Source: Acidobacteriota bacterium (GTDB taxonomy: Bacteria; Acidobacteriota; Aminicenantia; S016-38). Taken from it: DNA of 64,000 nt. Below the pieces are notes generated by a model that worked only from the letters and a program-made list of their open reading frames with translations, made no database searches and had not been told where the DNA came from. Below are positions 2,451 through 62,893 of the stretch, piece by piece (position 1 is the stretch's first letter; every line of letters begins with the position of its first letter). The position numbers and the translations under genes are program-made. Location of the stretch: positions 1,189-65,188 of the forward strand of contig WFSJ01000025.1 of NCBI GenBank assembly GCA_015486055.1, written 5' to 3'.

Positions 2451-4172
2451 GTGAGAACTCTTGACGCTAATACCTTAAAAAACCTGATGCTTGGGGGTTC
2501 ATTCTGGGTTATAAAGAACAGAGAAGAACTCAACAGGATAAATAGATTTCCCGTTGCAGATGCGGATACAGGAACAAATCTATCCGCAACATTGTATGCT
2601 GTATTCAAAAAGCTGAGGGAAAAGGAATTTTCTTCAGCAGCACAACTCCTCAAGGACACTGCTTACGAAGCATTCTCCAATGCAAGAGGAAATTCCGGGC
2701 TTATAATGAGTCAGTATCTCGTAGGACTTTCCAATTACATAAGAAGGGAATGGGTAGAGATAAAAGAGCTCGCCCATTCCATAAAGAGTGCCTATACTGA
2801 AGTTTATTCCTCACTTGAAAATCCAATTGAAGGGACGATCCTCACTGTAATGAGAGAAGTCGGAGAAGAAGCGGAAAGAATTAACACACTCAGCTTTAGG
2901 AATTTCTTATTAAGAATAATAAGCAGGGCAAGGCTGGCTCTTGAGAAAACAAAAAATATCCTTCCTGTTCTGAAAAGAGAAGGTCTTGTAGATTCAGGAG
3001 CCAAAGGATTCGTGCTCTTTCTTGAAGGGATGAGGCTTAGCCTGGACAAACAGATAGATTATGATACTCTTGATTTTAACACTGAATACTTCAAATGGAA
3101 TTCAGGGGAAGGTTTTTACTGTACTATTGCAACAATTAGAACCCGTTTAACTCACCATGAAATTGCAAATAAGATCAAGGATTTGGGAGATTCAATAATA
3201 TTTTCAAGCTTTAATGAGCTTATGAAAGTACACATTCACACCCCTGAACCAGATAGGTTTAAGGAAATACTGAAAGAAGAAGGGGAAATAGTATCCATGA
3301 CTGCGGAACCAATAGTTGAGAGAGAATTAAAGATAAGGGAAACTGGTTTGCTTGCGGATTCCTCCCTCGACATTCCCATTGCCATTGCAGAAGAACTTGG
3401 AATTGAGATCGTTCCCTTGGGAGTCATATTCGATGGAAAGATATTGAAAGATGGGGAGGAAATCTCAAGAGAGGTCGTTGCGGAAAGAATAATGAAAAAG
3501 GAGGAAATCAGTTCCTCTCTCCCTTTACCCATAGATTTTATAAGGTCATATTCCAAACTCAAAAGAAACCATAAAAGGATAATTTCCTTCCATCTGAGTG
3601 AAAAAGCGAGCGGAACATACAGCCTTTCAAGAACAATAAAGGAAAAGCTTGGTATATCCGGCTATGTTATTGATACTGGAAACTTCAGTCTCGGAGGAGG
3701 TCTAAAAGTTCTTAGAGCTGTGGAACTCCTTGATAAGGGTGAAAAACCCGATGATGTGGTAAAAAAGCTCGGTAAATTGCAGTCCAATGCCTTTATATTT
3801 GCAGATGACCTTTCCTACGGTGTAAAAGGGGGTAGGGTCAAGCCATGGAAAGGAGTTCTTCAGAAATATCTCAAACTTGGAATAATCCTTGGATTTTCCC
3901 CTGAAAAAGGAGGGATTTACTTTAGAGGAGCTGCTCCAGGAGGGAAAATGGCAATGAGGCTTTTAAAACATATGATAAAAAGGGAACTTGGCAGAGAGAA
4001 ACTTTACGACATAGGGATAGCTTTTACAAAAGAAGATTCGAGAATTAACGGAATGGAAAAATTTATAAGGGAAAACATAAGCACAAGAAAAATAATAAAA
4101 TCAACAACTTCCCCTGCAATAATGGTTCACGCTGGCCCTTCAGCCTTTGGAATATTCGCCCTGGAAATTTAA
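2451..4172 (+). CDS. yloV: DAK2 domain fusion protein YloV (Dak2 phosphatase domain plus DegV-like C-terminal domain)
   Basis: The N-terminal FPVADADTGTNL motif is typical of Dak2. The C-terminal half is DegV-like. It is 573 aa with a GTG start. Confidence 0.8.
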   Translation: MRTLDANTLKNLMLGGSFWVIKNREELNRINRFPVADADTGTNLSATLYAVFKKLREKEFSSAAQLLKDTAYEAFSNARGNSGLIMSQYLVGLSNYIRREWVEIKELAHSIKSAYTEVYSSLENPIEGTILTVMREVGEEAERINTLSFRNFLLRIISRARLALEKTKNILPVLKREGLVDSGAKGFVLFLEGMRLSLDKQIDYDTLDFNTEYFKWNSGEGFYCTIATIRTRLTHHEIANKIKDLGDSIIFSSFNELMKVHIHTPEPDRFKEILKEEGEIVSMTAEPIVERELKIRETGLLADSSLDIPIAIAEELGIEIVPLGVIFDGKILKDGEEISREVVAERIMKKEEISSSLPLPIDFIRSYSKLKRNHKRIISFHLSEKASGTYSLSRTIKEKLGISGYVIDTGNFSLGGGLKVLRAVELLDKGEKPDDVVKKLGKLQSNAFIFADDLSYGVKGGRVKPWKGVLQKYLKLGIILGFSPEKGGIYFRGAAPGGKMAMRLLKHMIKRELGREKLYDIGIAFTKEDSRINGMEKFIRENISTRKIIKSTTSPAIMVHAGPSAFGIFALEI

Positions 4173-5381
4173 CTACTTGTTGCTCTTCAAGACGGAATTC
4201 ATAAGCCTATCAAGAAAATCTGGAAAGGCTGAGGTTATTCTTATCCAGTTCGGCGTCAAAGGGATTGCAAGGGGATCCTCAAGGAATTGGGCACAGGCGA
4301 GCCTTAATGCATCAGCAAATGTCTCAACCGCAAGTTCTTCTTCATGGCGAAAGAATTCAAGACCATTTATCATAGCATCAGCATGAAATCTTGCTATCAT
4401 ATCCTCGGCAATCCTCAAATATGTTGTCCTAAGAGTTGTGAGCCTTCCCTCATTTACAATAATTCCCCTTGCGGCTAAATTCCTTAAAAGATTAACGGCT
4501 ATATCTATAGCCATTTTATGCAGTCCTTTGTTAGGGTCTTTTTTGGAAAGGGCCTGATGCTTATGGTCATATCTCTTGCAGAGTTCAACCTGAACCACTC
4601 TCTTTATGGCTACATTTCTGTAAACTTCACTGAGAATTCCTACCTCAAGCCCCCAATCCCCTGGTATTCTTATCATCCTTGCAAGGTCTGTCTTTAATGC
4701 AAATTCCCCTGCAAGTGGATAGCGAAAACTATCCAGATAATCAAGAAATGGATGAGATCCTGCAATTATTTTCAGGGACCTTATAAGAGGGATTAAGAAA
4801 AGCCTTGTTACCCTTCCATGAAGTTTGTTCGAGAACCTCGCATAAAATCCCTTACTGAACTCAAAATCAATGTTTGGATTAATCAACGGATATATGAGCC
4901 TTGAAAGCATCTCTCTTGAATATGTAATTATATCGCTATCGTGGAGTGCCACAACCTCTGATTCTCTCTGGGCAAGGAGGAGGCCGAGTCCGAACCATAC
5001 TGCCCGACCTTTTCCATCAGGTCCAACATAAAGTCCTGCATCCTCCAGGACCTTTATCAGTTTCTTTATTTTCGGATGTTCCAGCCAGAAAACTGTTACT
5101 CTATATGGATATTCCTTAATCTCCTCCTTTACATTCTCAAAATCTTCATCTTTAGCCCTGCCGAGAACTATTAACACCTGATTTACATAATCCACACCCC
5201 GGAGAGTTTCCATGATATTTTTCATGGCAGGTTTTCTGTAATCCGCATAAGTCGCTGGAATGAGGAGTGTGGTCCTTACATGCCTTGAATAATATGAAAG
5301 CTCCCTTTCTATCCTCTCTGTTCCTTTCTCACCTAACAAATGAAGGGTGGTTATACTTCCCGTCTGATAAATATCAGCCAT
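4173..5381 (-). CDS. gpgS: glucosyl-3-phosphoglycerate synthase-like GT-A glycosyltransferase (GT81, GpgS family)
   Basis: HDSDIITY, GRVTRLFLIPLI, YPLAGEFA and DWGLEVGILSEV align with Mycobacterium GpgS (DSDLI, GGRVTELVARPLL, PLSGEYA, GYGVEIGLL). The ORF extends to 5450, but the internal Met at 5381 (MADIYQ) gives an 8-nt overlap with the upstream phosphatase instead of 77 nt. Confidence 0.7.
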   Translation of the reverse strand: MADIYQTGSITTLHLLGEKGTERIERELSYYSRHVRTTLLIPATYADYRKPAMKNIMETLRGVDYVNQVLIVLGRAKDEDFENVKEEIKEYPYRVTVFWLEHPKIKKLIKVLEDAGLYVGPDGKGRAVWFGLGLLLAQRESEVVALHDSDIITYSREMLSRLIYPLINPNIDFEFSKGFYARFSNKLHGRVTRLFLIPLIRSLKIIAGSHPFLDYLDSFRYPLAGEFALKTDLARMIRIPGDWGLEVGILSEVYRNVAIKRVVQVELCKRYDHKHQALSKKDPNKGLHKMAIDIAVNLLRNLAARGIIVNEGRLTTLRTTYLRIAEDMIARFHADAMINGLEFFRHEEELAVETFADALRLACAQFLEDPLAIPLTPNWIRITSAFPDFLDRLMNSVLKSNK

Positions 5382-9459: not shown

Positions 9460-12400
9460 GGAGTATCCTCCAGTAAACAGGCCCAAAGACATTGGGAATA
9501 GTAACGGACTTCTGCTTTATTATTTTCATAGAACCAGGAGTTGAACCTGTAACATATATTTCATACTGACCGACAGTCAGGGAACCTCCTCCACCTAATC
9601 TTCCGCCCTGTCTTATTGCCGTAATATTTCCACCACATCCTGGAATAGATATCCTATAAGCTCTCATTTTCCCACCTGCTGAACACACATCACCTGTATC
9701 TGCGGGAGAATAAGTTGTAAAATAAAGGTTACCGAAGACAAAGGGATCATCAAAAAGCTTCTCACCAACCTCAGGGAATTTAAGCTTCCAACCTGAAGCC
9801 GAGGAGGCAACGGCAACTGATGGAGGGTTATTACTTTCATCAAATATGTCAGAGACGTCTGTAAGTATTGAGGAAATATCTTGAAGGTCGGACATACCGA
9901 TAGGCGTGGCTGGTATCCCATTGGGGTCCTTTATTCCAACAAACCACCAATCATTATCACTATTCTTGGGTTCATCCCTCCTTCCAGTTCCTGCATATAC
10001 CCATCTTCCTCCACAGGAATCAAGGGCAACAGTCACTTTCTGAAAGATATTCTGGTCATCCCCAAGCTCGGCAAGTTTTCCCATGTCCCAATCCGCTTTG
10101 TCTGTGCTGCTTATATCAACTTTCCATATATTACCCTTAATATCTCCCACATAAACTGTATCAACCACTCCATCGCTGTTGAGGTCAACTGCTACTGGGG
10201 TTCCAACCAATGAATGCAGGGCAGGTATAACTTTATATTGGTCTGACGGAGGATGAAGAGTAACAGTATTATTTCCCTGTGTAATGGTAACCGTTGGTTC
10301 ACTTCTCACAAAGGCCTTTATAACATCACCGCTTGTGGCATTCAATATAAAGAGGCCTGCCCCTTCATCTATGTCATCCCACTCGCTTGCCTGATGGTCA
10401 GATGGATAACCTCCTGTTGCAAATACAGCGTATACCTTGTCTTCCTCGCCATTAATTTTATATTTGACAACCCCAACCCTCGGTCTTCCCCAGGTTTGAC
10501 CTACAAATTGAGTCCAGTATTCACCCTTCCAGTGATGCTGATATGGAGGTGGTAAACACAGCTCCTTAAAATAGGGGGGACCTGCCTGGCCTGACTGAGG
10601 ACCACCAGCATTGTTCCAGAAAACTATGCAATCTACATCATCTGCAGGAGGAACAGCGGGAAACTCCCAGAGAACCCTTCCATAATGGCGGTTATTATCA
10701 TCATTATCGTAATCTTTGGTAGGGTCGGTTATATCCATGCCATAATACCTTTTTCCTCCCTGGCGAAGCCCAAATGTAAGAAAAGTAAAGAAATCTCTTT
10801 CATCAAAGGATTTGCTAAGGTCATTTAACCTAATATCAAGTGCGGTCATATAACCATCGGCTGAATAATCCCAGGAATTATTTATGGCTGTGCTTGTAAG
10901 CGTTGGAAGAGTATTTGTGGGAACGAGTTCCCTTACTCTCATTCCTGCATCGTAATGGGTGCCGTCATTTGTCCAATCTTTCAAAGTAACAGCATGAAGG
11001 GCACCATCATTTGTCCCGTAATACAGGAGCGGATTTCTATCTTTCCAATCATCATAGAACTCAGCATATTTTTTCCCATATATGTATTTGAGAAAGGCAA
11101 ATGGACTTCCAACCATAACCATATTTGAATGAAATGTATCACCGTGTCCCCAGTAATCTCCACTGGTGTCACAGTGAACTTCAAGATTTGTCCCTTGAGG
11201 GGTAAGGGTACATCCCAGCATGGCCGAATTTATTGGAGGGATGTTTGAAACCCTATCATAGGGAGGGGGAATTTTATAAAACTTTTTTATTTCTTCTGCC
11301 CGCGGGGTTTTAACAATATCCGAAAGTGCGAGAGTTTTTGTATATGTATATGTGAAAATTTTTGATAAAAGATTATCCCTGACAAGTTCAGAGTTAAGGT
11401 TCTTACTTTTCAGATAATTGGTGAGCACAAGTCCTGCATCCCACTTAGAATTGGTGGGGTTTCCATCAGCATCCACAGGAAATTCTCCGTTCTTTAATTC
11501 ATAGGCCTCGAGATGTCCTTTCCAGAATCTTGAATCTTCTCTCGGCCGAAACCAGCTTATAAATCCATAATCTTCTTCTGTAGTAACGGTTTTAGGAGCC
11601 GAAATAGGAGCATAAGAAGATGTTGTTTGAAGTATATAATGAATGGCGCTTCTTATACTCTTAACCAACTCCGAATAATTCTGGGCATTATAATACTGAC
11701 CTCCTCCTTCCTGCGCCGTGTGCTGAAGAAGTTGGGAATCCCCACTCCTAAATTTTATGGTATAGGTGGTAAGGTTCTGATCCCCATCAAGATCGGATCT
11801 TAGATCATGGTTATACAACCACCAAGATACATCATCAAGAAGATGGCTATCCCATTTTTTTACATCATTTAAGTTGTTATCATTATCCAGATCATAAAGA
11901 TCGCTACACTCTCCTTTAAGGTCAGGAATGTATGGTGAATACTCGCAATCGGTTGCGCCGTCACATGAGCATTCAAAATTATCTGAGGTAGGAGATCCAT
12001 CAGTCATGAGGATGGTAAAATTTTTCTGACACCATGCAGTTATGGGAGAAGGACAGGGACCGTTCTCGCACTTATCCCCAGTGAGCCCTTCAGCGAAATA
12101 CTCTCCCGCAGAATCCAAAGTTTCTGCAAGTGGGGTATATCCATATGGGTCTATATCATAAACAGTATTCATCATATCATGTCTCCATTTCGTACACTGG
12201 TCTGAGTCAGACTGGCTACACTTGTCTGGGTCAGAAACATCCTTTATAGGATATACTATTTTCCCTCCAATACTCTTATAGCGAGAATATCCCGTCTGAT
12301 GAAAATCCATAAATCCTATATCAAGTTCATTCCTGAAATCATCAATAAGTTCAATGAGTATCCTTTTAGCAGCTTCCAGTCGCTTAGCATAGTACTCTCC

Positions 12401-53034: not shown

Positions 53035-54068
53035 CGATTGTTCTCCTTTCTAAAAGAATGAACAATGAGTATCCCAAAGCCTATCACAATAAGCAACAAT
53101 GCAAGTTCCAAACCATGTATTCTTAGAAAAGCATAGGTGTAGAGCCAGGCCGCATAAGTAAGGCGATCAATCCATTCGTAATCAGGGGAATGCAATCTCA
53201 CAACTTTTATGTTAAGTTTTTCTCCTTTAACACTCAGTTTCAGATAGTGAAAGAAGGAATGGCGAGGGTCAGTACCCCACAATTCAGCTCCAGCTCCGCC
53301 TGTTATTATATAAGGAATCCCTCCCCATTTGCCGGAGAAATAACTGTGAATGTGAGAAGTGAAGATATATGTTACCCTGTATTTTTTAAAGAGGCCAAGC
53401 AATTCTTCTGCAGTTTTCTTAGAAAGACAGTGATGGTGGATTCCTCCCCTCGGGTCGTAAAGAGGAATATGCATGAAAACAAGGCGATGAACACAATCCC
53501 GTGCATTTTTCAGCTCATTCTCAAGCCATTCCCTTTGCCAGAGGCCGAGACTTCCATTGGCATCATCTAAGACTATAAAACATGTCCTGCCTATTTTAAA
53601 AGAATAAAAAAATGGGCCAAAGATTTCATAATAAAGTCCTCGCCCATCCCCTTTTAGCTCATGATTTCCCATCGCAACAAGAAAAGGTTTATGGAAATTT
53701 CTTCTTATCTGCTTGAGAAAATAGCGATATTTCTCCTTTTCCCCATCATATACAAGGTCTCCTATGTCTATAGCAAAAGAAATTTGCCTGTCATTTTCAA
53801 TTTTCGTTAAGAGTTTTTCAAAAACAAAGTGACTGTTTTTATTGTCCCCGAATACAGCAAAGGAAAAATCTTCGGGGTTGGAAATTTTAATTTGCTTTAA
53901 ATTTATGCTGAGCCAATCATGGGCTGGTAAGGGTGAAAACTTATTCCAGACCTCAAGGAAAAGGAGCGCAATTATGGAGAGGGTAAACAGTGCAAATACA
54001 AAAGGAGATTTTTTTGCTGCCTCTTTAAGGAAGAAAATAAAATTTTTAACCCCTTTTTTTCTCATCAA
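53031..54068 (-). CDS. membrane-anchored calcineurin-like metallophosphoesterase
   Basis: MPP motifs are present: FGDNK, IDIGDLVYDG, GNHE, MHIP and TSHIHSY. It has N- and C-terminal TM helices. ATGA-type 4-nt overlaps on both sides link it to the MFP and RND genes. Confidence 0.75.
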   Translation of the reverse strand: MMRKKGVKNFIFFLKEAAKKSPFVFALFTLSIIALLFLEVWNKFSPLPAHDWLSINLKQIKISNPEDFSFAVFGDNKNSHFVFEKLLTKIENDRQISFAIDIGDLVYDGEKEKYRYFLKQIRRNFHKPFLVAMGNHELKGDGRGLYYEIFGPFFYSFKIGRTCFIVLDDANGSLGLWQREWLENELKNARDCVHRLVFMHIPLYDPRGGIHHHCLSKKTAEELLGLFKKYRVTYIFTSHIHSYFSGKWGGIPYIITGGAGAELWGTDPRHSFFHYLKLSVKGEKLNIKVVRLHSPDYEWIDRLTYAAWLYTYAFLRIHGLELALLLIVIGFGILIVHSFRKENNR

Positions 54069-55150
54069 TCAGGGACCTTAAAAACTTTGTTAAAATTCTG
54101 ATTTATCAGTTCATAAGCACCGAGAATTGCGACCTTTTCCCTCTCTTTTAATCCTGAAATGACTTCAACATGCCCGTTATTTTTAAGACCAAGAATTACA
54201 GCCCTTTTCTCATATCTTCCTCCCTTCTGGACGAATATATAAGCTTTATTCCTGTAATACACCACTGCAGAGGCTGGAAGGGAGAGGGAGTTTTTATGAA
54301 TCTCAAGGATTAGTTTTCCCCTCACAGGTTCTCCTGGACTGAGCCCTGAATTAATTTCACTTCCCTCTATCCATACTACAAGCCCTCCTGAAGGTATATT
54401 TCCTGGAAAAGCTCTCTTCACCTTTCCTTTAAGCTTTTTACCCTCCGATGTTATTACAATAGCCTTCATTCCTATTGGAGATTTTAGAATTCTACTGAAT
54501 ATTCTGGCCTCTATTTTGAGGTTAGCGGGGTCAATCACCTCCCCGAGGATTTGTCCTTTCTCAACTTCCTGTCCTGCATTAACCTTTCTGGAGGCAAAAA
54601 TACCGTTAATTGTTGCCCTTACTTTTGTATTTTCCTCAAAAAGCCTCAGCTTCTTTTCTGCTGAGACAAGGGCACCTTTAATCTTTTGAGCATTTTCCTC
54701 TGCCTCCTTTAGCTTATCAAGAGATATTATTCTGGTTTTTACACCTTCCCTTCTCAAAGAAACAATCCTCATAGCAAGGGAATACCTCTTTTTAAGGGAT
54801 TTCGCTCTGGATTTCAGGATTTCCATTTCAGTAGAAATAACAGGGCCACCAAGCTGAAAAATAACTGTTCCTTTTTTTACCCTTTCCCCATCTCTTACTA
54901 ATATTGAATTTATCCTTCCGCTCTCCATGGAAATCAGCTTCACATCACTTTTGCTGAAAGTCAAGCCTAAAAATGGAATACTCCTTACGAAATCTCCACG
55001 AGAAGGATAACCTGTCTTTATAAAAGAAAGCTTGGTTTCGGAAAAATAGGACTTTATCTTCCGGGTATTATGCAATAGCACAAGGGAAAAAGCCCCTGCT
55101 ACGGCAAGAAAAACTATGATAATAATAACTTTTGTAGTTTTGGTTTTCAT
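54065..55150 (-). CDS. RND efflux periplasmic adaptor (membrane fusion protein, HlyD family)
   Basis: A signal anchor and coiled-coil hairpin are followed by beta-barrel domains. The ORF reaches 55240, but the Met at 55150 (MKTKTTKVIII) abuts the TolC-like stop. Confidence 0.8.
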   Translation of the reverse strand: MKTKTTKVIIIIVFLAVAGAFSLVLLHNTRKIKSYFSETKLSFIKTGYPSRGDFVRSIPFLGLTFSKSDVKLISMESGRINSILVRDGERVKKGTVIFQLGGPVISTEMEILKSRAKSLKKRYSLAMRIVSLRREGVKTRIISLDKLKEAEENAQKIKGALVSAEKKLRLFEENTKVRATINGIFASRKVNAGQEVEKGQILGEVIDPANLKIEARIFSRILKSPIGMKAIVITSEGKKLKGKVKRAFPGNIPSGGLVVWIEGSEINSGLSPGEPVRGKLILEIHKNSLSLPASAVVYYRNKAYIFVQKGGRYEKRAVILGLKNNGHVEVISGLKEREKVAILGAYELINQNFNKVFKVPD

Positions 55151-55151
55151 C

Positions 55152-56552
55152 TTATCCTCCAGTTTTCCTTCTTGAAGCTCTGCTATCTCTAAAAGGCAAA
55201 TATCTCCCAGAGACAAGCTCAAGGGCCAATGCAAGGTCACTGAGGTTTTCTTTCAGCCTCAGAAGGGATAATTTCTGTTCAATAAGTTCCTTCCTTGCAG
55301 AGTAAAAGGAGAAGATGTCCGATTCTCCTTTCGCCGAAGCATCTTTTAGGACTGAAACAAGGTGAGCTTGTGCTTTTATATAATTTTCCTTAGTGTGTAT
55401 TCTGGATCTGAGGAATTTCATATCTTTTATAATCTCTACAACTTTCGAACGGACTTCAAAAACTCTAAAGTTATATTCATCATACAATTTTTTTCTTGTG
55501 GCCTTTTCAAGCTCAATTTTACCCCTTTTCCTATTAAAAAAAGGCATCTCAATAGAAACCCCAAAGTTAGAAGTTAACACATTCTCAACATCCATTGCAC
55601 GGGCAAACTTAATGCTTAGTCCCGGGAACTGGGAAAGAACTGCTGCTCTCAATCTTGCCTCCTGACTCTTGTAGCCAATCCTGAGGGCAAGAAGATCAAG
55701 GCGACGGTTTTCAATACCCCTGAGAACCTGTGCGCTGCGAGGAAGACTGCCCCAGCGGGAAAAGTTAACTTCTTCCTGGAGAGACAACATTTTCCCTGGT
55801 GGAATCCCTATTGTTCTGTTTAGAGCAAGTCTCTCTCTTTCATTTTCGTTTTTCAGATTTATGAGAGCGAGCTTCACTCTTTGACATTCTCTCCTTGCAA
55901 TTTCCATGTCTTTGCAATTTTTTCCACCTATCTTCAGAGCCTTTACTATTAATTTCAGGTTCCTTCTTAAAAGGCTTCCTTCTTCCATAACTAAAGGGAG
56001 CATCTTCCCTATCCAGAAAAGGCGTAAGGCATGCAACTTTGCAGCCTCAGCAACCTGCCATTCTTTCCAGGCTATAGAAATTTCAACGGATTTAAGTCTT
56101 GATTTCGCCTCATCTATTTTCGCCCCCCTCGATATGAGCGAAGATAAACCAAAATTTATCCCAAATTCAAAACCCTTAACAGCTTCTTCTTTCCTGCCTC
56201 CTATGGGCTTTTCAAAACCATAGGAAAAAGAGGGGTTGGGAATAAGCCCTGCCTGAATTAATTGAGCCTTCACTATGCCCATTTGGTCACGGACTGCCCT
56301 CAGTTCAGGATTTCCTGCAACAGCAAGAAGAGCAGCTTCATCAGGGGAAATTCCATCTCTCAAATCAATCCTTACAGGCTTCAAAATGGGGTGATTGATC
56401 TTTTTCGCCATTATTTCAAGCTTGCTTATCCTGGGAACAGGTGAGTTCTTCTCAAGCAGAAGAGGATGATAAACTGCACAGCCAGCAAGGAAAAAAATCA
56501 AAAAAGCAGTGGGAAGAAGACACTTTAAAAACTTAGTTAAGCTTTCTTGCAT
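55152..56552 (-). CDS. TolC-family outer membrane efflux protein (lipoprotein)
   Basis: It has a lipobox FLAGC and two TolC-type repeat halves with long helices. Length is 466 aa. Confidence 0.8.
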   Translation of the reverse strand: MQESLTKFLKCLLPTAFLIFFLAGCAVYHPLLLEKNSPVPRISKLEIMAKKINHPILKPVRIDLRDGISPDEAALLAVAGNPELRAVRDQMGIVKAQLIQAGLIPNPSFSYGFEKPIGGRKEEAVKGFEFGINFGLSSLISRGAKIDEAKSRLKSVEISIAWKEWQVAEAAKLHALRLFWIGKMLPLVMEEGSLLRRNLKLIVKALKIGGKNCKDMEIARRECQRVKLALINLKNENERERLALNRTIGIPPGKMLSLQEEVNFSRWGSLPRSAQVLRGIENRRLDLLALRIGYKSQEARLRAAVLSQFPGLSIKFARAMDVENVLTSNFGVSIEMPFFNRKRGKIELEKATRKKLYDEYNFRVFEVRSKVVEIIKDMKFLRSRIHTKENYIKAQAHLVSVLKDASAKGESDIFSFYSARKELIEQKLSLLRLKENLSDLALALELVSGRYLPFRDSRASRRKTGG

Positions 56553-56646
56553 ATTTGAAATTTACTCGCATCGAATTTCCCTGTCAAGCTTTTGGAAAAA
56601 ATGCTATTGTAACCCTTTTCATACCAGAATTTATTGATTTATTGTA

Positions 56647-56655
56647 TGGTATAAT
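56647..56655 (+). promoter_or_regulatory. extended -10 promoter element (TGgTATAAT) for the Cys-rich mini-protein gene
   Basis: TGGTATAAT lies 37 nt upstream of the ATG at 56692. A GAAGG RBS sits 8 nt before the ATG. Confidence 0.4.
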
Positions 56656-56691
56656 TTTGTTTAAGAAAATCACTAAATATTGAAGGTTCTT

Positions 56692-56895
56692 ATGAAAGAA
56701 TGCAAATGGTATCCTGTTTGTCCAATCAAAAGATTTTACGAAGAGGGAAAAATAGATAGGAAGTGGGTGGAGCTTTACTGCAAAGGAAATTGGAAAAGGT
56801 GTGTGCGATACCAAATGGAAGAAGCAGGGGAACCTCATTCGGACTGTATGCTTCCAAACGGAGCTATAGACGAGAAACTATGTAGAGAAAAATAA
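56692..56895 (+). CDS. small cysteine-rich protein (6 Cys plus 1 His; zf-like 'cysteine-rich small domain' type), likely metal-binding
   Basis: MKECKWYPVCP...YCKGNWKRC...HSDCMLPNG...C. The ORF track starts at a TTG at 56680, but the ATG at 56692 is preferred. Confidence 0.45.
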   Translation: MKECKWYPVCPIKRFYEEGKIDRKWVELYCKGNWKRCVRYQMEEAGEPHSDCMLPNGAIDEKLCREK

Positions 56896-56941
56896 GCCAA
56901 TTAACTGAAAATCAGCATTAGAATTCCTCTATTAAGGTATT

Positions 56942-57030
56942 AAGGATTTTCAGATTAGTCTTTCTTCTCATATTGGTTAGAACAGATGACGTGATTATCT
57001 TACAGGGAATTCTTGACGAAAAGAGCAAGA
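56942..57030 (+). repeat. 89-bp direct repeat, copy 1 (carries the MNT-HEPN promoter)
   Basis: AAGGATTTTCAGATTAGTCTTTCTTCTCATATTGGTTAGAACAGATGACGTGATTATCTTACAGGGAATTCTTGACGAAA... is identical over about 80 nt to 57817-57905. TTGACG-17nt-TATTAT (57013-57041) sits at its 3' end. Confidence 0.85.
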
Positions 57031-57056
57031 GGGGATATTATAACAAAGGAGAAGAG

Positions 57057-57371
57057 ATGAAAAAGCGGGAAAGGATAAAGAAAACGATTTTAAAGACAGC
57101 GGAAGAGGAAGGGCTTACAGTCTCTCGTATAATCCTCTTTGGCTCAAGAGCGAGGGGGGAGGCAAAGCGAGACAGCGATTGGGATGTTCTTGTTGTTGTA
57201 GAAGAACATGTTGGCAGAAAGAAAAAGTGGGAACTGGCTGCGGAAATTAGATGCCGTTTAAGAGATATTCCTATAGATGTTCTTATAAAAACAAAGGGTG
57301 AGCTTAAAAAATACGAGAACTTCTATGGAACAGCTACGAGAGAAGCATTAAAAGAAGGAGTGGCTCTTTGA
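57057..57371 (+). CDS. minimal nucleotidyltransferase (MNT; Pol-beta superfamily), antitoxin-type partner of HEPN
   Basis: LFGSRARGEAKRDSDWDVLVVV carries the GS...DxD NTase motif. An AAGGAG RBS precedes the ATG at 57057. The ORF-track start at 56973 lies inside the non-coding repeat. Confidence 0.8.
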   Translation: MKKRERIKKTILKTAEEEGLTVSRIILFGSRARGEAKRDSDWDVLVVVEEHVGRKKKWELAAEIRCRLRDIPIDVLIKTKGELKKYENFYGTATREALKEGVAL

Positions 57372-57772
57372 TAGATGAAAGAGTGGAAAAATGGCTCCAA
57401 AAAGCCCTTAATGACTTGGAGGCTGCGAAGCATCTTTTAAAAGTCTCTCCTCCAGAGGAAATTGTGACAGAAGCTGTTTGCTTCCATTCTCAGCAGGCTG
57501 TAGAAAAATTTCTAAAAGCTTTTTTGACTTCCTATAATATCCCTTTTGGAAGAACTCATCATCTTGAATATATAGTAAATCTTGCCTCAAAGGTTGAGGC
57601 TTCCATTTTAAGTTTTTTGGAAGATATGAAAAAGCTCGCACCTTACGCTGTTGAGGTGCGCTATCCCGACGATTTTTACGAACCAACATTAAAAGAGACA
57701 AAAGAAGTTTATGAAATAGCTCTCAAGGTGAAGAAATTTGTCTTACAAAAGATAGGGCAAAATAGAAAGTGA
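57368..57772 (+). CDS. HEPN domain protein (toxin-type partner of MNT)
   Basis: HSQQAVEKFLKAFL...GRTHHLEYI is the HEPN R-x-H core. It overlaps the MNT stop (TTG start at 57368, or GTG at 57383). Confidence 0.75.
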   Translation: MIDERVEKWLQKALNDLEAAKHLLKVSPPEEIVTEAVCFHSQQAVEKFLKAFLTSYNIPFGRTHHLEYIVNLASKVEASILSFLEDMKKLAPYAVEVRYPDDFYEPTLKETKEVYEIALKVKKFVLQKIGQNRK

Positions 57773-57816
57773 AGCATAACCGAAAGATTCGGAAAGAGAT
57801 GTTATTTCCGCTGTGA

Positions 57817-57905
57817 AAGGATTTTCAGATTAGTCTTTCTTCTCATATTGGTTAGAACAGATGACGTGATTATCTTACAGGGAATTCTTGACGAAAGGAG
57901 CAGGA
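57817..57905 (+). repeat. 89-bp direct repeat, copy 2 (downstream of HEPN)
   Basis: Matches copy 1 apart from 2-3 mismatches at the 3' end. The -10 element is lost in this copy. Confidence 0.85.
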
Positions 57906-58045
57906 AGGAAAGGAGCGTTCATTTTTCACTTCACGGTTTTTACTTCTTACATTTCATCGCTCTCAGTGAATATCAAATGAAAGGGTAACTAAGAATTTTT
58001 TTATGGCCTCCACTGGTAAGCATTACTATGCTCTGTAAACTGAGG

Positions 58046-59209
58046 TTAGAAGGAATACTTTATCTCAATAAAAGCCTTTGAGAGCTTCTTGCTCCTTCCG
58101 AAAATGCTGGGCTCAGGTCCCTCAAATATTGATGCTCCTATATACATATTTACACCATCGGAAATTTCATATGTAAATACTGGAAGGAGAAAATAATCTC
58201 CATCGCCAAAATTGTAAACCCCTATGAACCTTAAATTATAATATCCTTCCTTTTTGTAAGAAATCATCCCGGAGGCAGAGTCTCTTTTCCTCCTTTCCAT
58301 TGGGTTCATAAATCCTTCTCTCCATTTAAAAACCCTGTTTTCTATGAATTGAAGGTTGAGAGTTAAATTGTTTGATATATTCCAGTCTGCACCAAGGACA
58401 TACTCGAGATGTGGATTTCTCACAAAGGGGTTGTATCCTTCCCTGTCCTGCGTGAGATAATAAGCTCCTTCTCCTTTGAAAACGAATCTTCCTATTGCAT
58501 AGTCAAAATCAGCACCGAATACCTGCTGAGGTTTATACTCTATGTTCAGAGCGTTTAATTCTGGGATTACAGAGGGGAAAAGTTCAAATCCCCTGAGGTA
58601 TGAAGTTGAAAAATTGAGGCCACCAACAGAAGAGGAAAATCTTACTCCTTCCTGCCAGTTTTCGGGTTTTTGTTCAGGCAGTATTGTCTTTGCCCCTGTA
58701 ATTTCCATCCCCGTTTTGTTGGGTCTAAAAAATGGGACAAAGACAAATTCAAGGCTTGAGGTTCCGAAATACCAGTCCATCTTCGCCGCAGTTACAGAAA
58801 TCCTGTAATCCTCTATCTCAGCGGTCATATTTGTGTAATCCCAGGGAGTTATATTGTCTGTAGGGTTTACCCAGTCCGTTCTTCCCCAGAAGACAAATTG
58901 CTTCCCGAGTTTTAAATCAACAGAGGAAAAATGGAACCTAATGTATGCCTCAACAGGGTAAATTTTAAGAACAGAAGACCTCGGTTCGGAAGGAACTCCT
59001 GTGCTGTTTCTCTCATCAAGATCAAAGTCAAAGGAAGCAAAAAAATCAATGTTTTTTCTCTTCTTTTTCATTGAGAGCTGAAGTCTTGTCCCGTATCTGT
59101 CAAAGCTATATGGCAGGGTGAGTTTTGGATGGGCAAAGAACTTAAGATAACCATGGAAATCGCCTGAGACCAGAATAAGAGGAAACAGCAAAGCTATTAA
59201 TTTTCTCAC
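58046..59209 (-). CDS. putative outer-membrane beta-barrel protein (partner of LolA-like/MMPL module)
   Basis: It has a signal peptide, alternating amphipathic beta-strand pattern, and a C-terminal aromatic residue (IEIKYSF) typical of BAM substrates. It overlaps the LolA-like gene by 4 nt. Confidence 0.5.
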   Translation of the reverse strand: MRKLIALLFPLILVSGDFHGYLKFFAHPKLTLPYSFDRYGTRLQLSMKKKRKNIDFFASFDFDLDERNSTGVPSEPRSSVLKIYPVEAYIRFHFSSVDLKLGKQFVFWGRTDWVNPTDNITPWDYTNMTAEIEDYRISVTAAKMDWYFGTSSLEFVFVPFFRPNKTGMEITGAKTILPEQKPENWQEGVRFSSSVGGLNFSTSYLRGFELFPSVIPELNALNIEYKPQQVFGADFDYAIGRFVFKGEGAYYLTQDREGYNPFVRNPHLEYVLGADWNISNNLTLNLQFIENRVFKWREGFMNPMERRKRDSASGMISYKKEGYYNLRFIGVYNFGDGDYFLLPVFTYEISDGVNMYIGASIFEGPEPSIFGRSKKLSKAFIEIKYSF

Positions 59210-62321: not shown

Positions 62322-62893
62322 TTTATTAACTCATTTAACATTTTCTTGAAGGTTTCGCACTCCTGTTTCAAATCTTCAAACTTCATTCCCTGGGAAAGTT
62401 TTATGGACATTCCAATTACATAACTCCAGATGACCTCAAATATCCCAGAAGCATGACCCTTTAAGGTATTTACCTTTTCATCCAAGGGTTTCCTCATGGT
62501 TGCTATCTCCTCCCTAAACTCCTTCCCCAATAAAATTGGTGAGCTCTTCCCAAAGGGAAAAATCAAGCCCAATATATCCTTTCTTTCCTTGAAGTACTCA
62601 ATATAAAAATCAATTAGAGCGGAAAACACTCCAAAGGCATCTCTCATATTCTTTACTGCCTCATAGGCTTTTCTATAAAAATTAGATGTTTCTCTCAGGG
62701 CAACTTCGTAGAAGAGTTCTTCTTTTGAATGAAAATAATAGTAAAGAATTCCCTTTGAAAGCTCTGCTCTCTCCGCTATTTCATCCATGGATGTCTCTTC
62801 ATAGCCTTTTCTTGAGAAAAGCTTCAGCGCAGCATCAAGAATTTCTTTCTTCCTTGCCTCTCTTTCCCTTTCTTTTCTATCCTTCAAACTCAT
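62318..62893 (-). CDS. TetR/AcrR family transcriptional regulator
   Basis: The HTH is ILDAALKLFSRKGYEETSMDEIAERAELSKGILYYYF. The Met at 62893 (MSLKDRKE) has an AAGG RBS; the ORF track extends to 62929. Confidence 0.8.
   Translation of the reverse strand: MSLKDRKEREREARKKEILDAALKLFSRKGYEETSMDEIAERAELSKGILYYYFHSKEELFYEVALRETSNFYRKAYEAVKNMRDAFGVFSALIDFYIEYFKERKDILGLIFPFGKSSPILLGKEFREEIATMRKPLDEKVNTLKGHASGIFEVIWSYVIGMSIKLSQGMKFEDLKQECETFKKMLNELIK

Follow-up and report, generated by a model that had tools for sequence, protein, structure and literature searches.

Known MNT-HEPN Modules

MNT-HEPN dyads are among the commonest predicted toxin-antitoxin (TA) modules, and the type VII HepT/MntA systems among them have been characterised experimentally. 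The dyads of thermophilic bacteria and archaea combine a minimal nucleotidyltransferase (MNT; PF01909) with a HEPN protein of the HEPN-T clade (PF05168), and their solved relatives are 1wot (a minimal nucleotidyltransferase), 1ufb (TT1696) and 1wol. To our knowledge, AMPylation has not been established in the HEPN-T/minimal MNT clade. Typical of HEPN-T is the sequence R-Y-P-D, with D replacing the H of the Rx4-6H motif (Anantharaman et al. 2013, PMC3710099), and the MNT/HEPN-T classification used here follows the same work. The locus described below lies in a 64-kb stretch of DNA, referred to as the window, and carries an MNT-HEPN pair between two copies of a direct repeat.

The MNT and HEPN Genes

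The MNT gene (57057..57371, + strand) encodes a putative antitoxin of 104 aa with matches to the Pfam families PF01909 (2.4e-13) and PF18765 (3.4e-11). The columns of its GS...DxD motif, GSRARGEAKRDSDWD, are invariant among relatives, and Pfam recognises no DNA-binding domain in this minimal protein. Its score against the NCBIfam MntA equivalog NF047752 is 44.2 bits, under the cutoff of 60. A Shine-Dalgarno sequence, AAGGAG (57046..57051, + strand), can be read 5 nt before the ATG at 57057, which an initial sequence-only reading of the window had proposed as the true start. This proposal is supported by the homology to relatives, which begins at RERIK, by the 102-aa length of the related MNTs, and by the 28 repeat-encoded residues, which have no match in a 5.8-billion-protein database because all matches cover at most 80% of the 132-aa MNT call. 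The public 132-aa gene calls begin within the repeat, which adds 28 surplus codons.

The HEPN gene (57368..57772, + strand) encodes a HEPN-domain protein of 134 aa, a putative toxin of the HEPN-T clade. PF05168 is its sole Pfam match (3.2e-24; 85.8 bits, the cutoff being 22), NCBIfam gives none, and the closest PDB entries are 1wol and 1ufb. As already noted in the initial reading, stop and start overlap: the TTG start at 57368 runs into the MNT TGA stop at 57369-57371. The N-terminus MID-ERVEKW agrees with the relatives. The conserved motifs are CFHxQQxVEK, FGxTH and EVRYP; in the region EVRYPDDFY no His stands 4-6 residues after the Arg, and the canonical Rx4-6H is absent. The protein shares with the HEPN-T clade both the R-Y-P-D in place of Rx4-6H and the conserved His elsewhere (CFH, TH).

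The two Pfam matches (PF01909 and PF05168) uphold the description of the locus as an MNT-HEPN pair. Judged by its domains, the module is a predicted TA pair of the HEPN-T/minimal MNT kind and not a canonical HepT/MntA system. By analogy, HEPN would act as a growth-inhibiting toxin of the RNase type, and the co-translated MNT would neutralise it by binding and/or nucleotidylylation. Annotation pipelines should keep such HEPN-T modules apart from the experimentally characterised type VII systems.

The Repeat Pair and the Native Promoter

The gene pair is bracketed by a direct repeat of 92 nt at 97% identity (56942..57033 and 57817..57908, + strand), with a start-to-start spacing of 875 nt. Its core is perfect, 56942-57021 being equal to 57817-57896 over 80 nt with 0 differences, and 0 of 100 shuffles gave any match. 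Repeats of about 89 bp lying about 875 bp apart had been reported; their existence and spacing stand, the extent measured here being 80 nt (perfect) or 92 nt (97%). Past either end the similarity is not above shuffled controls, except for a purine-rich tail at the right edge (9/12), which in copy 1 forms a homeologous extension to 57033. The window contains no other high-identity repeat of at least 30 nt. Copy 2 begins 44 nt past the HEPN stop, in a convergent intergenic region, and no gene follows it on the + strand. A degenerate second cassette was looked for beyond it and rejected, as 57897-58045 has no similarity to the cassette on either strand. A 9-nt inverted repeat (56905-13/56945-53) pairs the start of copy 1 with its upstream sequence, while copy 2 has no upstream partner of this kind, a difference that possibly reflects the native context of copy 1.

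Both repeat copies are present in three assemblies, namely the window, an ENA scaffold (L001, 99.75% identical to the window) and the MAG GCA_027006605.1 (L002, 100% identical). Two strains that differ by 0.25% elsewhere have thus both retained the two identical copies. What looks like an indel of L001 relative to the window (62422-62699) was rejected as a run of Ns.

A sigma-70-type promoter, TTGACG-17-TATTAT (57013..57041, + strand), was found in a two-hexamer scan with a 10/12 match and straddles the right boundary of copy 1. Its TTGACG lies at 57013-57018 and its TATTAT at 57036-41, and the perfect repeat holds only the -35 box and 3 nt of the spacer. The sequence-only reading had let the first repeat end in this promoter, driving the pair; the promoter is confirmed, its -10 falls outside the repeat. 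Copy 2 was correctly described as devoid of a -10: it carries an orphan -35 at 57888-57893, and the scan lists no promoter there. The same promoter architecture occurs at the same position in the closest relatives of the cassette, L003/L004 (TTGACA-17-TATCAT) and L005 (TTGACG-17-TAGCAT). Their MNTs show ~70% aa identity; the genomes are unrelated, lack the repeat and share no other similarity at the DNA level. Upstream of the L005 cassette, 13 of 14 positions agree with the -35 box CTTGACGAAAAGAG (p=0.014). A hybrid promoter arising by chance at an insertion junction is expected in an estimated ~1% of cases. Since the promoter is conserved across the right edge of copy 1 in relatives that lack the repeat, this boundary is native cassette sequence, and the comparison identifies copy 1 as the predicted native leader of the module, not an insertion or target junction. 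A duplicated regulatory leader, one of the explanations offered at the outset, fits this evidence.

The Neighbourhood

The cassette lies between two different efflux modules, as first described, with an OEP/HlyD/RND operon to its left and an MMPL/LolA-like/DUF1302 operon to its right. An RND gene also adjoins the L003/L004 cassette; shared synteny was considered and rejected, as the RND proteins are only 27% identical and the adjacency coincidental. From ~9 kb left to ~8 kb right of the cassette no integrase or transposase is found among the called genes, and MNT and HEPN are the only genes between the repeats. Hallmarks of mobility (RNA structure, an Rfam match, a neighbouring integrase or transposase) are not seen, an observation in favour of a duplication scar. 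A foreign composition of the module was likewise looked for and not detected: the codon usage and GC of MNT and HEPN fall within the range of the window (10th and 39th percentile among size-matched chunks), and relatives match the higher GC of their own hosts. Because of this native codon usage and GC the module is not a fresh arrival, and because its copies show 0 differences in 80 nt the repeat is young.

Upstream, outside the repeats, lies a gene for a 67-aa protein with six Cys and one His (56692..56895, + strand). The extended -10 attributed to it, TGgTATAAT (56647..56655, + strand), and a GAAGG ribosome-binding site can both be read from the sequence; the extended -10 has no matching -35 and is therefore absent from the list of the two-hexamer scan. 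The profile search suggested for this protein gave no match in Pfam, NCBIfam or, in addition, PDB, and homologues are found in 185 cluster representatives at E<=1e-3. Of the Cys residues in this family, C4, C10 and C30 never vary and C37 is kept in at least 90%; the domain also forms part of fusion proteins with family-4 uracil-DNA glycosylases (UDG), methyltransferases and PS decarboxylase. The small protein is a real gene and a member of an uncatalogued four-Cys domain family; with a codon usage typical of the window, it looks like a resident gene. Being widespread and repeatedly joined to family-4 uracil-DNA glycosylases, this four-Cys domain deserves some attention in its own right.

Flanking Repeats at Other MNT-HEPN Loci

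Another MNT-HEPN pair, L018, which is independent of this one, also lies between copies of a direct repeat, in its case of 82 nt and with a very similar geometry. In both loci 25-35 nt separate the end of the upstream copy from the MNT start, and 44-49 nt separate the HEPN stop from the downstream copy. In L018 the repeat derives from a diverged allele of an flpD/mvhD-like gene, of which it is a 5' fragment, and the order there is flpD/mvhD 5' fragment, MNT-HEPN and full gene. Its copies are 87% identical, and 10 of the 12 differences are at third codon positions. As these differences are mostly synonymous, the L018 repeat indicates recombination between diverged alleles, not a fresh duplication. 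The 82-nt repeat could also hint at a recurrent process, which would count against a scar at our locus. Flanking repeats are absent from three other related cassettes. Bracketing repeats of ~80 nt are seen in two of four independent, evaluable MNT-HEPN loci (the window and L018). In the fetched loci, the background frequency of short flanking duplications (65-92 nt) is ~1 per 40 kb, and two of these are gene-fragment scars, which favours a scar at our locus as well.

Two further loci were set aside. The 875-nt contig L017, which carries an MNT-HEPN pair and has exactly the length of the repeat spacing, shows neither terminal overlap nor similarity to the repeat, and the agreement in length is a coincidence. 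The MNT-HEPN pair of a Bacillus pXO1-type plasmid (32% identical) lies inside a larger ThiF/PAPS-reductase operon and is uninformative.

Origin of the Repeats

We consider the repeats to be a local duplication scar, with a probability of roughly 0.55, left either by a tandem duplication with a subsequent microhomology deletion or by a template switch. The resident MNT-HEPN module would be transcribed from its own TTGACG-17-TATTAT promoter, copy 1 would represent the native 80-90 nt upstream of the promoter -10, and copy 2 would be a recent, partial duplicate of this leader. By the first route, a unit of 875 nt comprising leader and operon would be duplicated in tandem, and the remainder of the second unit would then be deleted between the homeologous purine-rich tracts GAAAAGAGCAAGAGGG and GAAAGGAGCAGGAAGG. 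By the second, a single template-switch event during replication would give the same outcome. The two-step route requires two events, and homeology of the purine-rich tracts is expected by chance in ~7% of cases given the A/G-rich composition; both observations speak against a scar. We infer the order of events, since no close relative with a single-copy or empty site was found in public data. Copy 2 is probably inert because it has kept the -35 without a -10 and has no downstream gene. Ordinary homologous recombination between the two perfect 80-nt repeats is predicted to be able to delete or amplify the module. Read as a young rearrangement scar, which describes it best, the repeat is a finding that matters very little.

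Unlikely, in our view, is a pop-in/pop-out cassette, in which an 875-nt circle present among close relatives would integrate by homologous (Campbell-type) recombination at a chromosomal 80-nt copy and leave attL/attR-like repeats. A single crossover predicts a perfect 80-nt direct repeat around a self-contained, promoter-bearing TA unit, and in E. coli RecA-dependent recombination needs less homology than 80 nt. The conserved promoter is compatible with this mechanism because the repeat would belong to the circle, and the mostly synonymous differences of the L018 repeat provide a case of recombination between diverged alleles. However, such integration needs a cassette-less chromosomal repeat, and none was found. 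The search for an empty site through the flank genes yielded only a 31% relative among GTDB representatives and nothing in the JGI metagenomes. The closest DUF1302-like homologues (L007-L013, 74-65% identical) keep the TetR-MMPL-LolA-DUF1302 operon, with different downstream neighbours; even for the closest flank homologue, 74% identical in aa, synteny is broken. Exact look-ups of the HEPN and OEP proteins returned only two contigs, both with filled loci, and the filled form is present in three of three assemblies. When a 25-nt core of the repeat was scanned against the genome, metagenome and viral contig collections, no exact match appeared, and the whole cassette region gave none in plasmids and phages (blastn). 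The native composition of the cassette also argues against its arrival on a circle.

We give little credence to a functional duplication, with copy 2 kept as a decoy operator that binds the TA complex or another regulator, as an insulator that keeps out antisense transcripts of the convergent DUF1302 operon, or for programmed amplification or loss. The location of copy 2 in a convergent intergenic region and the retention of identical copies in two strains would agree with a function, but 0 differences in 80 nt are equally expected of any young duplication. Apart from an EcoRI site the repeat shows neither an internal palindrome nor operator-like symmetry, no DNA-binding domain is recognised in the minimal MNT, and conservation outside this species is not observed. 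When the repeat was folded, as had been suggested as a check, the MFE was -16 kcal/mol for the + strand (z=+0.34 relative to shuffles) and -10.1 kcal/mol for the - strand (z=-0.12), and neither strand folds better than its shuffles. Rfam gave no match, whether at the gathering threshold or at E<=1, and on these grounds the repeat was rejected as a structured RNA, riboswitch or sRNA. A tRNA fragment or att site was rejected as well, the only tRNAs of the window being located at 26.7-26.9 kb.

It is a long shot that MNT-HEPN modules are recurrently bracketed by ~80-nt repeats since they are captured, excised as ~0.9-kb circles and re-inserted by host recombination, with the carried homology as a portable attachment site. 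If true, this would amount to recombinase-free cassette mobility for TA modules in thermophile communities.

Dedicated mobility, by which MNT-HEPN would move with a long target-site duplication or with the att core of a site-specific or integron-like system, is very unlikely. The ~80-nt repeats at similar offsets in two independent MNT-HEPN loci speak for it, but the L018 repeat is an flpD/mvhD-like fragment of a diverged allele and three other related cassettes have none. The right boundary of copy 1 lies inside a promoter that is conserved in relatives without the repeat, and this conservation appears largely to refute cassette-like mobility by target duplication or a recombination site, as the sequence-only reading had suggested it. 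Moreover, neither strand forms a hairpin, inverted repeats were found neither at the repeat ends nor at the inner edges, GTTAGAA misfits the attC core GTTRRRY, and the neighbouring genes include no integrase or transposase. Nor does the insert resemble a transposon or IS with target-site duplication, as it consists only of MNT and HEPN, with no transposase and no inner-edge inverted repeats.

Just as poorly placed is a dispersed intergenic repeat of the REP/MITE type that occurs here twice by chance. The scan of the source genome covers the 64-kb window and a 1.8-kb extension, which leaves such a reading some room, but even at relaxed stringency only two copies are present in the 64 kb. The REP-like element named at the outset as an alternative was not seen in the window or in the collections searched, where the 25-nt core and the cassette region are unmatched. 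Terminal inverted repeats and a stable hairpin are missing, and the repeat-encoded peptide occurs in no called protein of the 5.8-billion set.

An artefact is unlikely because the repeat is found in three assemblies and is shorter than a typical sequencing read; although every source is a metagenome assembly and L001 has scaffold gaps, an origin in short-read assembly is scarcely credible for an identical structure in three separately deposited assemblies, one of them a strain variant, with unique sequence on all sides of the repeat.

Comparison with Known Systems

The TA cassettes of chromosomal integrons resemble this locus in that a small TA unit is bounded by similar repeats, of ~60-140 nt. 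They differ in being bounded by attC, whereas the repeats here have no attC hairpin or core sites (RYYYAAC ... GTTRRRY), occur in two copies only and are accompanied by no integrase, and one of their boundaries is inside a conserved promoter. Blocks of attL/attR identity and the gene-fragment scars of homeologous recombination, as in L018, likewise flank an accessory module with a direct repeat of ~80 nt. The L018 repeat is coding and 87% identical, while the one in the window is non-coding, identical and includes the -35 of the module itself.

With the type VII HepT/MntA systems the module has in common the gene order, an MNT with the GS...DxD motif, a HEPN partner and the presumed logic of an RNase toxin neutralised by MNT. 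However, its HEPN belongs to PF05168 (HEPN-T) and not to DUF86/HepT and is devoid of the canonical Rx4-6H(xY), and its MNT reaches 44 bits against the NCBIfam MntA model, which has a cutoff of 60. The closest systems are the MNT + HEPN-T dyads (PF01909 + PF05168) of thermophilic bacteria and archaea, with the same domains, MNT in the 5' position and overlapping genes. In its proteins the pair does not differ from them, the sole oddity being that 80 nt of the leader recur exactly downstream of the operon, and the dyad is a typical, ordinary example of its kind.

A direct repeat around the MNT-HEPN gene pair

The direct repeats reported to bracket the MNT (nucleotidyltransferase, putative antitoxin) and HEPN (putative toxin) genes are real. 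A repeat search returned one direct repeat of 92 nt, 97% identical, with a start-to-start spacing of 875; copy 1 (56942-57033) lies 5' of MNT and copy 2 (57817-57908) lies 3' of HEPN. The first 80 nt are perfect (56942-57021 = 57817-57896), and no match at all appeared in the 100 dinucleotide shuffles used as the control for this identity. In the 64-kb window it is the sole high-identity repeat of at least 30 nt, and relaxed blastn of the window and every fetched locus detected no weaker copies. Beyond the repeat, the flanks are not more similar than shuffled controls on either strand, with the sole exception of 12 nt past the perfect part (AGAGCAAGAGGG vs GGAGCAGGAAGG, 9/12), which could match by chance because both tracts are purine-rich.

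The domain searches agree with the annotation of the sequence-only reading: MNT (57057-57371, + strand) has a minimal nucleotidyltransferase domain (PF01909 2.4e-13, also PF18765), HEPN (57368-57772, + strand) has a classical HEPN domain (PF05168 3.2e-24), and the MNT TGA stop is overlapped by the HEPN TTG start. The HEPN N-terminus (MID-ERVEKW) aligns with its relatives from their first residues. Public gene calls start MNT at a TTG at 56973, within the repeat, and the resulting 132-aa protein is too long. The ATG at 57057, proposed earlier as the correct start, is confirmed by the onset of similarity to the closest relatives at RERIK, by the hits to the 132-aa query, 31 of 31 of which cover at most 80% of it (the 28 repeat-encoded residues are unmatched in 5.8 billion proteins), by the 102-aa length of the MNTs of more distant relatives, and by an AAGGAG 5 nt before this ATG.

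A conserved promoter spans the repeat edge

The closest relatives of the cassette, with about 70% protein and about 71% DNA identity (DNA similarity being limited to 57067-57723), are three loci (L003, L004 and L005) from unrelated genomes, with other neighbours and no flanking repeat. The promoter recognised earlier in the window (TTGACG, 17-nt spacer, TATTAT) recurs at the same position upstream of MNT in L005 (TTGACG, 17, TAGCAT) and in L003/L004 (TTGACA, 17, TATCAT). The -35 and the start of the spacer match at 13 of 14 positions between the window and L005 (CTTGACGAAAAGAG vs CTTGACGAAAAAAG; p=0.014 against shuffles). In the window, the right edge of copy 1 falls within this promoter: the -35 (57013-57018) is inside the repeat, the -10 (57036-57041) is outside, and the perfect repeat stops 3 nt past the -35. 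Since the promoter spanning the edge is shared with loci that have no repeat, both sides of the edge are ancestral cassette sequence, with no junction between target and insert. Copy 1 is accordingly read as the native leader of the operon and copy 2 as a secondary, partial copy of it. The first bases of copy 1 (GATTTTCAG, 56945-56953) pair with CTGAAAATC at 56905-56913, upstream of the repeat, a partner that copy 2 lacks, and the left edge of copy 1 falls in a tandem TATTAAGG/TATTAAGG; the upstream pairing and the tandem agree with copy 1 being in its original context.

In the three related loci (L003 9655-9695, L004 9655-9695, L005 9664-9696) MNT probably starts at a GTG 6-7 nt past the -10, a distance that suggests leaderless MNT mRNAs. 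Unlike them, the window MNT has acquired a 15-nt leader with AAGGAG, plus an ATG. The public MNT calls in all four loci probably start too far upstream and are too long.

Origin of the second leader copy

With 0 differences in 80 nt the repeat is young. A local rearrangement is the most economical history of the second leader copy, and we give it a probability of about 0.55. A tandem duplication of the 875-nt unit of leader and operon would have been followed by loss of what remained of the second unit, through deletion between GAAAAGAGCAAGAGGG and the homeologous tract GAAAGGAGCAGGAAGG downstream of it; alternatively, a single template-switch event would have had the same outcome. The repeat is thus most likely a young local duplication of the module's own leader. 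The module itself shows no sign of having been imported recently from a donor of different composition, because its codon usage and GC3 are within the range of the window genes (10th and 39th percentiles among size-matched chunks) and its GC fits the window (0.39 vs 0.40); related cassettes have 0.44-0.49, matching the higher GC of their hosts.

In the main rival account, appreciably less probable, homologous recombination by the host at the 80-nt sequence excises and reinserts the 875-nt unit. This would be compatible with the conserved promoter but requires a cassette-free copy of the repeat, and none was seen. Exact-sequence look-ups with HEPN and the adjacent OEP gene returned two filled contigs only, and no close relative of the locus was present in GTDB representatives or JGI metagenomes. 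Outside this species, the closest homologue of the DUF1302-like flank gene shares 74% identity with it; in the three nearest lineages the TetR-MMPL-LolA-DUF1302 operon is preserved, each time with a different downstream neighbour. A function for copy 2 is doubtful; it retains a -35 (57888-57893), and on that strand it has neither a -10, as had been noted, nor a downstream gene.

A recurrent capture mechanism for MNT-HEPN modules is improbable, even though a more distant relative (L018, HEPN 53% identical; L019 and L020 are identical fragments with the same repeat sequence) is also flanked by a direct repeat (3577-3658 and 4473-4554; 82 nt, 86.6% identical, spacing 896), whose first copy stops 25 nt short of the MNT start and whose second begins 49 nt past the HEPN stop. 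There, the upstream copy corresponds to the first 28 codons of an flpD/mvhD-like gene and the downstream copy to the start of the full gene. With 10 of the 12 differences falling at third codon positions, the upstream fragment comes from a diverged functional allele, and the repeat is a scar left when homologues recombined, as opposed to a newly made target duplication. The L018 pair lies between hdrA and mvhD in a small island of TA-like genes, which includes a 196-aa HEPN-like protein, a HicB-like protein and DUF4258 with a zinc-finger antitoxin; the mvhD-like gene appears to be split by a frameshift.

Around 191 kb of non-redundant fetched loci contain five direct repeats of at least 40 nt and at most 5 kb apart, four of them 65-92 nt long. 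One, at a locus with a homologue of the DUF1302-like flank (L008, 3738-3810 and 6082-6154; 73 nt, 88% identical), flanks three small genes that directly precede the TetR-MMPL operon and is probably another gene-fragment duplication scar; it resembles the 3' end of an ABC-transporter ATPase gene (…KTCILISHQIWNI…). Duplication scars are not rare in these genomes, so one beside a TA pair carries less significance. L003 and L004 are 98.7% identical through the HEPN gene and diverge completely directly after it; the breakpoint region (L003 10399-10527, L004 10509-10557) contains short tandem motifs of 22-nt GGTTC-rich and 14-nt ATCGTCC units. L003 has an AAA_14/DUF234 ATPase gene that L004 lacks, with a 65-nt repeat on either side of it (region 10399-10527 and 11961-12025).

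A dedicated target-duplication or att mechanism is very unlikely, as it is contradicted by the promoter conserved across the edge of copy 1 in repeat-less relatives; the cassette mobility suggested by the sequence-only reading is therefore unsupported. We consider a dispersed repeat equally remote: a search for further copies found two in the 64-kb window only, the 25-nt repeat core has no exact match in GTDB representative genomes, JGI metagenomes or IMG/VR, and blastn with the whole cassette region returned nothing from plasmids or phages. An assembly artefact is unlikely, indeed barely credible, because the structure recurs in two further public assemblies, an ENA scaffold of a strain variant (L001, 15 kb at 99.75% identity) and a contig of 3.6 kb from MAG GCA_027006605.1 (L002, 100% identical), and the 37 positions at which L001 differs from the window all lie outside 56500-58200.

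Several other identities were considered for the repeat. It does not fold as a structured RNA (MFE -16 kcal/mol on the + strand and -10.1 on the - strand; z +0.34 and -0.12; no Rfam match), so the folding suggested earlier gave no signal. It has neither the hairpin nor the internal inverted repeat of an attC-like site. Nor is it the footprint of a transposon: its edges lack terminal inverted repeats on the inner side, and the intervening segment consists of the two genes only. No integrase or transposase domain is on record in the called genes from about 9 kb left to about 8 kb right.

Neighbouring genes

As previously described, the cassette lies between two efflux modules, both on the - strand: an OEP-HlyD-metallophosphatase-RND operon on the left and an MMPL/LolA-like/DUF1302-like operon on the right. 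In the left-hand operon (window 53900-56552, - strand; L001 5664-6698), the metallophosphatase-domain gene between the HlyD-type adaptor and the RND pump is an unusual member. Of the window-L001 differences, 22 of 37 cluster within 500 nt (58219-58718, - strand) of the DUF1302-like outer-membrane gene, with one difference in the 9 kb to its left; the L002 contig ends just before the cluster. The clustering points to a recombination tract, or to diversifying selection acting on a surface protein. An apparent length difference at L001 15056-15155 (window 62423-62698) reflects a scaffold gap of 100 N, with no indel behind it.

The 67-aa Cys-rich ORF (56692-56895, + strand) is a real gene, with 185 family cluster representatives at E<=1e-3 (50% identity clusters) and 93 at E<=1e-10. 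Of the six Cys and one His emphasised earlier, the family conserves only four Cys (C4, C10, C30, C37; CX5CP...YCX6C), along with P11, G19, W25, Y29, R39, P55 and G57, and the His is common, not invariant. The domain stands alone or is C-terminal in family-4 uracil-DNA glycosylases, SAM methyltransferases and one phosphatidylserine decarboxylase. The profile search proposed for it gave no sequence match for 40 members in Pfam, NCBIfam or PDB, and the AlphaFold model built from the family alignment, confident (pLDDT 93.5) and with four short helices, had no Foldseek match in PDB. The protein represents a widespread small domain with no counterpart in these databases. It is a neighbour and no part of the MNT-HEPN module, because it is located outside the repeats, shows the codon usage typical of the host and was not found next to related cassettes.

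Comparison with known MNT-HEPN systems

The HEPN belongs to the HEPN-T clade (PF05168), its nearest solved structures being 1wol and 1ufb (TT1696). The nearest to MNT is 1wot, while the characterised MntA (5yep) is reached only at E=1e-3. Against NCBIfam MntA, MNT reaches 44 bits (cutoff 60), and in PADLOC it matches candidate-system models only (PDC-S09); HEPN has no match to NCBIfam or PADLOC models. The region equivalent to the catalytic Rx4-6H reads EVRYPDDFY and is invariant among relatives, as are CFHxQQxVEK and FGxTH. Given the PF05168 HEPN, the EVRYPDDFY motif, the 44-bit MntA score and the lack of an NCBIfam HEPN match, the pair is placed in the abundant, predicted MNT/HEPN-T toxin-antitoxin class and not among the demonstrated members of type VII HepT/MntA, a family in which AMPylation was shown as the mechanism for DUF86-type toxins (PMC7641770, PMC11586414). 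The module is one more member of a well-known kind of TA pair. In HEPN-T proteins the His of Rx4-6H is replaced by D and a conserved His is found elsewhere (Anantharaman et al., PMC3710099), and the HEPN studied here has exactly that pattern.
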